DNA of 1,070 nucleotides, taken from NCBI GenBank assembly GCA_000004985.1, contig GG739583.1. One strand, written 5' to 3'. A program made the position numbers and the translations under genes. Positions 2 through 1,070 of this stretch are shown piece by piece (position 1 is the first letter of the stretch; each line of letters starts with the position of its first letter). Under the pieces are notes generated by a model. That model saw only the letters and a program-made list of their open reading frames with translations. It had not been told where the DNA came from and did no database searches. This DNA is from Naegleria gruberi (lineage: Eukaryota).

Positions 2-253
2 TTCAACACTGAAGATGTTTCTCAACTTATCAAGAATGCTATATTCTCTGTTGATTCAGAAATCACTGTTTCTGGTCACAGTTTACGTATTGGTGCAACT
101 ACTGAGAGTATTATCAAGGGAATTCCTACTCAGGATATTATTATGGGGACTAGACATAAGGATGTGAAATCTTTACAACCTTATCAAAGACAAGAAGCTC
201 TTGTAGCTCGCCACTTGTCTACTACTCTCCTTTCTCAGGACAATATCCATTAG
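2..253 (+). CDS. Tyrosine recombinase (phage-integrase/Cre-like family). C-terminal catalytic fragment; the 5' end is truncated by the window edge. Stop codon TAG at 251-253.
   Basis: Frame 2 is open from the window edge and translates to FNTEDVSQLIKNAIFSVDSEITVSGHSLRIGATTESIIKGIPTQDIIMGTRHKDVKSLQPYQRQEALVARHLSTTLLSQDNIH*. It carries box I 'GHSLRIG' (His at codon 77-79, Arg at 86-88), box II His at 155-157 and the nucleophile Tyr at 182-184. The H/R/H/Y spacing (0, +3, +26, +35) equals the Cre spacing H289/R292/W315/Y324. About 22 residues follow the Tyr before the stop, as in Cre. GC is about 38% here versus about 26% downstream. Confidence 0.85.
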   Translation, partial: FNTEDVSQLIKNAIFSVDSEITVSGHSLRIGATTESIIKGIPTQDIIMGTRHKDVKSLQPYQRQEALVARHLSTTLLSQDNIH

Positions 254-285
254 TTTATTTATTGTTGGTTTTCTTTTAAGAAACA
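243..285 (+). repeat. 43-bp perfect direct repeat, copy 1 (atatccattagtttatttattgttggttttcttttaagaaaca). It overlaps the last three codons (I-H-stop) of the recombinase gene. Candidate recombination core or att-type site.
   Basis: All 43 positions are identical to 772-814. The boundaries are sharp: position 242 is a where 771 is t, and 286 is t where 815 is c. The copy contains the recurrent ATTAGTTTATT motif at 249-259. Confidence 0.9.
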
Positions 286-336
286 TGTTCTTATCGAAGT
301 TTACTGAGATAAAGTAGTGTTTCTTGAAAACAACAA

Positions 337-351
337 TTGAATAAACTAATA
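337..351 (-). repeat. Left arm of a 15-bp perfect inverted repeat (plus-strand ttgaataaactaata; reverse complement tattagtttattcaa).
   Basis: Its reverse complement is identical to 411-425. It contains the ATTAGTTTATT motif in inverted orientation. For a 15-mer inverted match the chance expectation in this window is about 0.01. Confidence 0.75.
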
Positions 352-354
352 GAA

Positions 355-380
355 AGTATGATCAAAAAAATTGTCATACT
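355..380. other. Hairpin with a 7-bp perfect stem (agtatga / tcatact) and a 12-nt A-rich loop (tcaaaaaaattg).
   Basis: 355-361 agtatga is the reverse complement of 374-380 tcatact. The stem is AT-rich with only 2 GC pairs, so it is weak as an RNA terminator. On the minus strand it is followed by uucuauu. Confidence 0.4.
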
Positions 381-385
381 ATAGT

Positions 386-402
386 CCCACCCTTGCCCAC
401 CC
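386..402 (-). other. Motif on the minus strand capable of forming a G-quadruplex (G4): GGGTGGGCAAGGGTGGG. On the plus strand it reads cccacccttgcccaccc, an i-motif candidate.
   Basis: Four G3 tracts with loops of 1, 3 and 1 nt satisfy the canonical G3+N1-7 pattern, and short loops favour a stable parallel G4. It is the only GC cluster in a stretch of about 26% GC. It sits inside the inverted-repeat-bounded segment next to the hairpin. Confidence 0.6.
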
Positions 403-410
403 TCTATTAT

Positions 411-425
411 TATTAGTTTATTCAA
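411..425 (+). repeat. Right arm of the 15-bp perfect inverted repeat (tattagtttattcaa).
   Basis: Identical to the reverse complement of 337-351. The two arms enclose a 59-bp segment (352-410) that contains a hairpin and the G-tract motif. Confidence 0.75.
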
Positions 426-429
426 ATCA

Positions 430-443
430 AAGGTTCTAACCTT
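430..443. promoter_or_regulatory. 14-bp palindrome aaggtt-ct-aacctt (6-bp arms, 2-bp centre). Candidate dimeric protein-binding site.
   Basis: aaggtt (430-435) is the exact reverse complement of aacctt (438-443). It lies 5 bp after the right inverted-repeat arm. Confidence 0.3.
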
Positions 444-662
444 TATCCTTAATACTTTGGAATGTGATTTTTTAACCAATCCTCAAATATTTTCTCAATT
501 GATTGAAAGATTTCACTCTATTTGTATTATTGAAAGATGATTGTTATCATCTTTTTATCTTTGTATTATTATTTGATATTTGACAACTTGGTTTATTGTC
601 AGATTGCTTTAATTTAGTTTAGTTTTTGCTTTTTGTTAAGAAATCATAGTATGATTGTATTG

Positions 663-675
663 ATTAGTTTATTTA
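663..675 (+). repeat. Additional direct copy of the recurrent motif (attagtttattta), matching 249-261 and 778-790.
   Basis: A 13/13 match to the 5' part of the 43-bp repeat. It lies 109 bp upstream of repeat copy 2. Confidence 0.6.
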
Positions 676-734
676 ATTTCTGGACCTGCTGAATAAAACA
701 TAATGCCTAAAAACAGCAGTAACCAGGCTACAAA

Positions 735-752
735 CTACCTAAGAATAGGTAG
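735..752. other. Perfect hairpin ctaccta-agaa-taggtag (7-bp stem, 4-nt loop). It overlaps the stop codon of the minus-strand ORF.
   Basis: 735-741 is the reverse complement of 746-752. On the minus strand it is followed by only UUUG, so it is not a convincing intrinsic terminator. Confidence 0.35.
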
Positions 753-1070
753 AAGTTGTAGTGTGAGCTTTATATCCATTAGTTTATTTATTGTTGGTTT
801 TCTTTTAAGAAACACAACGCCAAAACCAGAATAGTTCTCCAAAAGAAACAATAAAACAATCGTTGATAAACCAATAGGTAGAAGCTCACTCAATATATTC
901 CACATCCAAAAGGATGGTATATGTTGCTCAGAAATGCTGCTTTGAAGGTCATTGACTTTATTGAACATTGTCCCGAGTAAATAAGGTTGTTTACAAAATC
1001 GAGATTGAAGTAGAACAACTCCTATAAAAAACCTGCATTGCAGGAAAAAATTAGTAAAACTCAATCCATA
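735..1070 (-). CDS. Hypothetical small hydrophobic (possibly membrane) protein, at least 111 codons. The 5' end probably lies beyond the window, since the frame is still open at position 1070. Stop codon TAG at 737-735.
   Basis: The only long open frame outside the recombinase gene. An open run of 111 or more codons on a roughly 72% AT strand has about 1e-4 chance per frame. There is no competing plus-strand ORF. The predicted protein has hydrophobic stretches (LSELLPIGLSTIVLLFLLENYSGFGVVFL) followed by a basic tail (KRKPTINK). The listed 'M' start is really TTG at 1064-1062, so the true start is unknown. The codon composition (Phe/Leu-rich) also resembles antisense or AT-rich noise, so confidence is moderate. 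Confidence 0.4.
   Translation of the reverse strand, partial: YGLSFTNFFLQCRFFIGVVLLQSRFCKQPYLLGTMFNKVNDLQSSISEQHIPSFWMWNILSELLPIGLSTIVLLFLLENYSGFGVVFLKRKPTINKLMDIKLTLQLLPILR
744..755 (+). repeat. 12-bp direct repeat aataggtagaag, copy 1. The partner copy is at 873-884.
   Basis: The two exact 12-mers are 129 bp (43 codons) apart and bracket 43-bp repeat copy 2. Each has an adjacent 7-mer: gtgagct at 763-769 and agctcac at 883-889, which are mutually inverted. A 12-mer direct repeat alone is only weakly significant here (expectation about 0.3). Confidence 0.4.
772..814 (+). repeat. 43-bp perfect direct repeat, copy 2. It lies 529 bp downstream of copy 1, inside the minus-strand ORF.
   Basis: Identical to 243-285 over all 43 positions with unrelated flanks on both sides. 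It reproduces ...ATC CAT TAG of the recombinase 3' end. A chance match is negligible, even at this AT bias. Confidence 0.9.
873..884 (+). repeat. 12-bp direct repeat aataggtagaag, copy 2.
   Basis: Exact match to 744-755. It overlaps agctcac, the inverted partner of gtgagct at 763-769. Confidence 0.4.

Follow-up and report, generated by a model that had tools for sequence, protein, structure and literature searches.

What is a strong G-quadruplex (G4) motif doing in AT-rich noncoding DNA just behind a recombinase gene? The question is raised by a locus of Naegleria gruberi, of which a stretch of 1,070 nucleotides (contig GG739583.1 of assembly GCA_000004985.1), here called the window, was analysed. 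A first-pass annotation of this DNA had drawn attention to the motif and had proposed that it promotes or targets recombination in the manner of the Neisseria pilE G4, or that it is an origin or nick site. The explanation of the whole that we favour, with modest confidence, is another one: the window would hold the 3' repeat module of a retrotransposon of the DIRS order, with the motif as a regulatory GC-rich box or G4 of its terminal repeat. To our knowledge, the replication of tyrosine-recombinase retrotransposons is understood only for DIRS-1 of Dictyostelium. The two features from which the question arises are the following:

2-253, plus strand: C-terminus of a tyrosine recombinase (YR), 83 codons, recognized from its translation, a Pfam match, and alignment with full-length relatives
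386-402, minus strand for its G-rich side: the G4 motif

The motif reads CCCACCCTTGCCCACCC on the plus strand and GGGTGGGCAAGGGTGGG on the minus strand, the latter with four G3 tracts separated by loops of 1, 3, and 1 nucleotides; sequence, coordinates, and loop pattern are exactly as the first-pass annotation had given them. This arrangement falls within the canonical definition of a G4 (at least four runs of at least three G, loops of 1-7 nt), and it is the sole canonical G4 or C4 motif in the 1070 bases of the window. Other runs of three or more G or C are limited to the coding part (GGG at 118, GGGG at 145) and to CCC at 972, which is the only other such C-run outside the coding part. GC content is 23.5% on either side of the motif (254-385 and 403-700) and 25.5% in 254-771 minus the motif, which agrees with the 26% reported earlier. 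Shuffling the mononucleotides of the window yielded any canonical G4 motif in 1 of 20,000 trials, and a sequence within three mismatches of the 17-mer was obtained in none of 200 dinucleotide shuffles; the probability of a chance origin, per window, is low. In G4Hunter the 17-mer scores 2.06, and the motif is the one site in the window where the 25-nt G4Hunter score exceeds |1.2|. The most stable parallel quadruplexes include those with G3 tracts, single-nucleotide outer loops, and a short central loop (c-MYC Pu22, T30695, and pilE type). Because the loops of the 17-mer are of this design, its folding in vitro is, by analogy, very likely, and judged from its letters the motif is a genuine and very strong G4 candidate.

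The same 17-mer can be parsed in another way, namely as tandem 10-mers, CCCACCCTTG and CCCACCCTCT, which are identical at 8 of 10 positions. With such a tandem structure, the 17-mer is therefore less improbable than four independent G-runs would be. This parse is the starting point of the main rival to a regulatory reading, and a serious one: an incidental 10-bp duplication. The motif may have no function at all, having arisen by slippage duplication of a 10-mer with one CCCACCC in fast-evolving noncoding transposon DNA and having been picked as the outlier of a scan over many windows. A per-window chance of about 5e-5 permits a few cases of this kind in a genome of tens of megabases. Against this explanation, which we regard as possible but on the unlikely side, it can be said that the motif is the single extreme compositional outlier of the window and that TRF reported no tandem array at the motif; a simple tandem repeat was rejected.

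What the motif could do depends on what kind of locus this is, and here the recombinase is informative. Frame 2 is open from the start of the window to a TAG stop codon at 251-253. Its translation carries the catalytic motifs H-x-x-R (GHSLRIG), His (TRHK), and Tyr (QPYQR), matches Phage_integrase of Pfam (E=0.005), and is 96.4% identical (80/83, local blastp) to the C-terminus of the N. gruberi protein XP_002679188.1 (P0037, 326 aa), with which it shares the C-terminal residues ...DNIH. This protein contributes the upstream catalytic R (FRLFARPGE) and K (GHKTD); together with HSLR, H, and Y of the window, these residues give the R...K...HxxR...H/W...Y pattern of a DIRS-order YR. In the 90% cluster of P0037, four proteins are from N. 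gruberi NEG-M and one is metagenomic, and the recombinase family therefore has several near-identical copies (at least four annotated in strain NEG-M). In a comparison of the window YR with a 76%-identical copy (L001), dN/dS was 0.16: the coding part of the window evolves under purifying selection. L001, at 628-856 of a sequence from ENA sample ERZ4903137, is itself degenerate: its reading frame is shifted, the conserved ...NIH C-terminus is gone, and the counterpart of window positions 237-582 is missing. Long T-runs and small GC clusters are found in its 3' flank, among them CCCGTCG[AG]ATT twice.

A word-indexed protein search with the single sequence retrieved two fragmentary metagenomic relatives only. 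Profile searches, the first of which covered 1.8 billion representatives, retrieved full-length relatives, several of them from N. gruberi and N. fowleri. Protein-guided scans of viral, genome, and metagenome contigs gave no relatives, and a PDB sequence search with the YR profile returned nothing useful.

The neighbourhood of the relatives identifies the element. The end of a 630-aa ORF, which has an RVT_1 domain and weakly matches a Dam-like methyltransferase, extends into their YR ORF. An RT ORF upstream of or overlapping YR was seen in the relatives L012, L013, L017, L014, and L015, while the window itself begins inside YR; in L012, a gag-like ORF precedes the RT ORF. The Dam-like match in the pol ORF of L012 is to PF05869 (E=4.6e-5, 23.6 bits, below the cut-off of 28.1 bits) and, weak as it is, leans towards the DIRS/PAT group rather than Ngaro. 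Since the YR relatives directly follow gag-like and RT/RNaseH/Dam-like ORFs, there is little doubt that the window is the 3' end of an N. gruberi tyrosine-recombinase retrotransposon of the DIRS order. DIRS-like sequences had already been reported from N. gruberi, as unresolved ones, in a 2011 survey (PMC3266345).

Other origins were considered and rejected. A search with blastn of plasmid and phage collections gave no match, and a bacterial, phage, or plasmid origin was dropped. A Crypton or a plasmid-type YR element was ruled out since the relatives bear RT ORFs. An organelle origin with GC clusters, for which codon usage and the hairpin that follows the stop had spoken at first, was dismissed because the relatives are nuclear Naegleria retrotransposon genes.

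An apparently complete relative of about 4.1 kb is present in N. fowleri (L015, positions 8325-12459 of VFQX01000003.1). A GC-rich hairpin lies at about 8358-8400, just inside its left end, and the 100 nt of the left end recur internally, after the first ORF and ahead of the RT ORF (9440-9520). A 785-aa gene annotated at this locus as 'Tyr recombinase domain' (XP_044569001.1) appears to be a fusion of a partial RT/pol frame and the YR ORF.

Downstream of the recombinase, the window holds a series of repeats and palindromes:

243-285, plus strand: copy 1 (B1) of a 43-nt direct repeat, overlapping the YR stop codon and serving as the left arm of palindrome 1
246-352, unstranded: palindrome 1, a long imperfect hairpin directly after the stop codon that is similar to an internal complementary region (ICR), with arms at about 246-300 and 303-352
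286-771, plus strand: inter-repeat segment ('A2' in B1-A2-B2), noncoding, about 25% GC, bounded by the 43-nt repeats and holding the motif
583-605, plus strand: segment common to the window and the 3' flank of L001 (22/23, E=5e-4)
587-646, plus strand: diverged third B-like copy, 63% (D1) and 79% (D2) repeat identity
763-889, unstranded: palindrome 2, a long hairpin on B2 (z=-3.0, 1/200 shuffles)
772-814, plus strand: copy 2 of the direct repeat (B2), 43 nt, identical to B1 and serving as the left arm of palindrome 2

B1 and B2 are identical at 43 of 43 positions and both lie downstream of YR, as is characteristic of split direct repeats; their 100% identity suggests that this copy of the element is young and has not decayed. 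Such youth would also count against the motif being a functionless slippage duplication in transposon DNA. The predicted fold of palindrome 1 has an energy of -45.5 kcal/mol (z=-5.4, 0/200 shuffles). In L012, a distant relative, the stop codon is likewise followed by a palindrome of this architecture (z=-3.9), the sequence of which has diverged. The right arms of palindromes 1 and 2 differ in sequence, and about 410 nt of DNA with 25% GC lie between the two. A perfect 43-nt repeat and two palindromes following YR correspond to the terminus-matching internal repeats found after YR in the DIRS order.

The repeats fit a split-direct-repeat layout of the form A1-[ORFs]-B1A2B2, in which B1 would be 243-285, A2 would be 286-771, and B2 would be 772-814. 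On this layout, 286-771 would duplicate the 5' terminal region of the element (A1 = A2). The strict DIRS1 model, in which the ICR is the exact complement of the right terminus, was tried and appears not to fit: complementarity between the right arm of palindrome 1 and 764-818 is about 72-88%, against 100% identity for the direct copy. Because the N. fowleri relative has terminal inverted repeats of 24-31 nt and the window has a perfect direct repeat, the family appears to combine split-direct-repeat and inverted-repeat (DIRS1-like) features.

These repeats also bear on whether the motif is a part of the element. At 583-605 the window again matches L001, and the sequence of the element therefore continues past the motif; the position of B2 beyond the motif gives further support. 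The motif very probably belongs to the retrotransposon. The description of the motif as isolated is consequently valid for the window, with its single G4 motif, and not beyond it, because the motif sits inside a multicopy mobile element.

An 11-mer, ATTAGTTTATT, occurs five times in the window against an expectation of 0.17, at positions 249, 340 (minus strand), 412, 663, and 778. The copies at 249, 340, and 778 are located in palindrome arms and the one at 412 in the right arm of a 15-bp stem around the motif, while the one at 663 is in none of these. The 11-mer is a candidate for a protein-binding (arm-type) site of the recombinase.

Some further observations concern the right half of the window. 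An exact 12-nt direct repeat, AATAGGTAGAAG, at 744-755 and 873-884, brackets palindrome 2, and inverted 8-mers, GTGAGCTT and AAGCTCAC, are found at 763-770 and 882-889. The AATAGGTAGAAG repeat could be a duplication made upon insertion, a part of the palindrome, or a product of chance. On the minus strand, a hydrophobic ORF of 111 codons (735-1070) crosses B2 and runs off the right end of the window. It was considered as a neighbouring gene and rejected, its MauE match being below the cut-off and no homologue being present in 5.8 billion proteins; it is probably not a gene. Concatenated ORF pieces from 254-1070 had no homologue in 5.8 billion proteins either, and since no protein matches these translations, no other copy of the noncoding region is visible by this route. 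Rfam and tRNA searches of the window gave no meaningful Rfam family and no tRNA, and an RNA gene was rejected.

With the locus placed among the retrotransposons, the proposed role in recombination can be weighed against a second site in the window:

281-288, unstranded: AACATGTT, with the palindromic core ACATGT (283-288), a candidate YR crossover or circle-junction site

The hexamer is set between inverted 6-mers (TAAGAA and TTCTTA around ACATG, 277-293), and the identity of B1 and B2 stops after ...AACA, in the middle of ACATGT. Among the relatives, ACATGT is found 15-65 nt past the stop codon in L012, L014, and L016, and the contig of L013 ends at ...AACATG. The sequence CCATTAG at the stop codon is kept at the DNA level in L012, L013, and L014, and is CCATTTG in L016. 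Because it is conserved in the family and because the identity of the direct repeats breaks inside it, ACATGT at 283-288 is likely to be the crossover or circle-junction site of the recombinase, as far as can be inferred from these alignments. It precedes the motif by about 100 nt.

From the YR stop codon to the start of the motif the distance is 133 nt, close to the value of about 130 bp given earlier. This proximity, together with a G3 design with short 1-x-1 loops that is the same as that of the pilE G4, is what speaks for the G4 promoting or targeting recombination as in Neisseria, or marking an origin or nick site for the adjacent recombinase. The setting speaks against it. The locus is a eukaryotic retrotransposon, tyrosine recombinases use short duplex core sites, and a conserved candidate for such a core, ACATGT, is present 100 nt away. 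The pilE system needs Rec-dependent gene conversion and an R-loop formed by a small RNA (PMC13463697, PMC3547852), and nothing comparable was recognized here; moreover, the motif is missing from the relatives that were read. We consider this explanation very improbable. Of the first-pass interpretation, a strong G4 beside a tyrosine-recombinase gene, within a repeat-bounded unit of that gene's mobile element, has stood, while the recombination mechanism has not found support, given a eukaryotic retrotransposon with ACATGT as the best candidate site elsewhere. A pilE-like trigger acting with a site-specific YR in a eukaryote would have nothing beyond the shape of the motif in common with its model, and an origin or nick-site role found no support. 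The motif is most likely not a recombination initiator.

The immediate surroundings of the motif, which lies 33 nt beyond palindrome 1, are themselves structured:

337-425, unstranded: stem-loop module with a perfect 15-bp stem (337-351 and 411-425), DNA fold z=-5.3

Inside the 15-bp stem are a 10-bp hairpin (355-380) and a 4-bp mini-stem (381-384 and 404-407) that brackets the motif. The perfect 15-nt inverted repeat and the 43-nt repeats enclose the motif, and the repeat-bounded noncoding unit belongs to the mobile element of the recombinase. The precise placement of the motif at the apex of a perfect 15-bp stem, with a 4-bp closing stem of its own, is a further argument against the motif being an incidental duplication. 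In the minimum-energy fold of the minus strand, calculated by ViennaRNA with G-quadruplex folding enabled, the G4 is included and the stems are undisturbed, a result that is merely indicative since RNA parameters were used.

Such a fold suggests a role in replication. The G4 might act in the antisense single-stranded cDNA that serves as a replication intermediate, where it might aid or time the joining of ends, the priming of the second strand, or recognition by a protein. The G-rich strand of the motif is antisense to the YR gene, as this requires, and in the modelled minus strand the G4 forms beside a palindrome and inside the 15-bp stem. In Dictyostelium, DIRS-1 passes through an antisense single-stranded linear cDNA as a true intermediate and depends on its ICR (PMC7192593). 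The same study provides an argument to the contrary, as the DIRS-1 transcript stops soon past the ICR, without most of the right repeat (PMC7192593). Palindrome 1 carries a polyadenylation-type signal, AATAAA, in its right arm at 340-345, which is about 40 nt ahead of the motif, and additional copies are located at 692 and 850. The signal at 340-345 could put the 3' end of the RNA upstream of the motif; the motif would then be kept out of the cDNA and a role in cDNA would be excluded. In addition, the relatives do not conserve the motif, and a stable G4 in the template is more likely to block second-strand synthesis, in line with the lowered retrotransposition of Ty1 upon insertion of a potential quadruplex sequence (PQS) (PMC8074290). 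A role in the cDNA intermediate is thus improbable. The more specific version, in which the G4 folds in the antisense single-stranded cDNA right by the ICR-like palindrome and in which the circle could not be closed, the second strand primed, or the recombinase loaded in its absence, is a shade less probable still. If this version were true, the motif would be a structured-DNA cofactor of tyrosine-recombinase retrotransposition, the first to be described.

Conservation of the motif was looked for in the related loci. The canonical G4 motif is absent from about 37 kb of them (L001, L002, and L012-L015), which contain one lone GGGTGGG, and none was seen in L016, read to position 1500. L012, L013, and L017 end 150 nt or less past the stop codon, and much sequence after YR is available in L014 and L016 only, both of which are distant or degenerate; as evidence, the absence of the motif from the relatives is weak. 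In L001, the nearest relative at the DNA level with downstream sequence, the region of the motif is missing. Both the related loci without a G4 motif and the gap in L001 are as expected if the motif has no function. Dispersal of the motif as a repeat of its own was examined and rejected: the nine exact matches of the 17-mer in IMG/VR are all unrelated and mostly in GC-rich contexts (42-73% GC). The motif with its AT-rich flanks had no match in genome or metagenome contigs.

The favoured reading of the motif as a box in the terminal repeat starts from its plus strand, on which 386-402 has two CCCACCC (CACCC-type) boxes, 10 nt or one helical turn apart. In the layout given above, the motif would lie in the LTR-like terminal repeat segment (the 'A' of A1-[ORFs]-B1A2B2), and a second copy of the segment that bears it would be expected at the 5' end of the element. 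The two CACCC-type boxes could there serve a DNA-binding factor, or a G4 could form on the antisense strand, or both, and either could modulate transcription of the element. This action would parallel that of G4s and Sp1-type boxes in other retroelements with LTRs; PQS are concentrated close to promoters within LTRs and influence expression (PMC3902901, PMC5838962). A possible parallel to the window motif is seen in the N. fowleri relative, at whose 5' end an inverted B-like sequence is followed immediately by a GC-rich, CACCC-containing hairpin. By analogy with these systems, a regulatory function of the motif can be put forward tentatively, at rather less than even likelihood.

If the motif should prove to be conserved in all active copies, it would offer a handle on the regulation of a poorly studied class of retrotransposons, and, with the AT-rich genome of this protist as background, it would also be a rare, strong, and directly testable G4. 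Should it not be conserved, what is gained is annotation only, namely of the 3' repeat module of the Naegleria DIRS-like element that had been left unresolved (PMC3266345). The most useful by-product of the analysis is the anatomy of the repeats, with their two palindromes, the direct repeat of 43 nt, and the conserved ACATGT in which the repeat identity breaks.

Several known systems can be set beside this locus. For the motif as such, the reference is the c-MYC Pu22/T30695 type, in which the arrangement G3 N1 G3 N2-3 G3 N1 G3 predicts a very stable parallel fold in K+. The 17-mer of the window has this arrangement and is predicted to fold likewise. With the pilE G4 of Neisseria gonorrhoeae, the design of the motif is shared and nothing else: G3 tracts, 1-nt outer loops, and a short central loop. 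The pilE locus is bacterial, has an adjacent sRNA promoter and R-loop, and undergoes RecA-type conversion between silent and expressed pilin copies (PMC3547852, PMC13463697). Instead of a bacterial locus with silent donors and Rec-dependent conversion, a eukaryotic retrotransposon with a site-specific YR was found here.

As regards the element, the likeness to the DIRS order (DIRS1-like, PAT-like, and Ngaro elements) extends to the order of the genes in the relatives, which is gag-like, RT/RH(/MT-like), and YR, and to the overlap of their ORFs. In both, the ORFs end with YR, which is closely followed by internal repeats and accompanied by an ICR-like palindrome, and the repeats appear to pair with the termini. 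The perfect direct repeat B1 = B2 resembles the split direct repeats that are found downstream of YR in Ngaro and PAT elements (PMC8547959, PMC4157794). DIRS1-like features are that each B is an arm of a long palindrome and that the N. fowleri relative has short terminal inverted repeats. Palindrome 1 resembles the ICR that is essential for the retrotransposition of DIRS-1 (PMC7192593). Taken together, the terminal architecture appears to be a hybrid. In the literature searched, no description of a G4 motif as part of DIRS-order elements was found.

The closest functional analogue is provided by the PQS of LTR retrotransposons (PMC3902901, PMC5838962). There, as would be the case here by analogy, a strong PQS lies in a promoter-proximal, noncoding terminal repeat and overlaps GC- or CACCC-type boxes. 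The G4/Sp1 region of the HIV-1 LTR is a further example of a G4 in the LTR of a retroelement. The two differ in that LTR elements have DDE integrases and true LTRs, whereas the element described here has a tyrosine recombinase. Quadruplex-prone GC boxes are thus a known kind of feature of retroelement terminal repeats, but one that has not been described for the class of element and the host considered here. The DNA of this host has about 25-35% GC, and the motif therefore stands out much more from its surroundings than the PQS of LTRs do.
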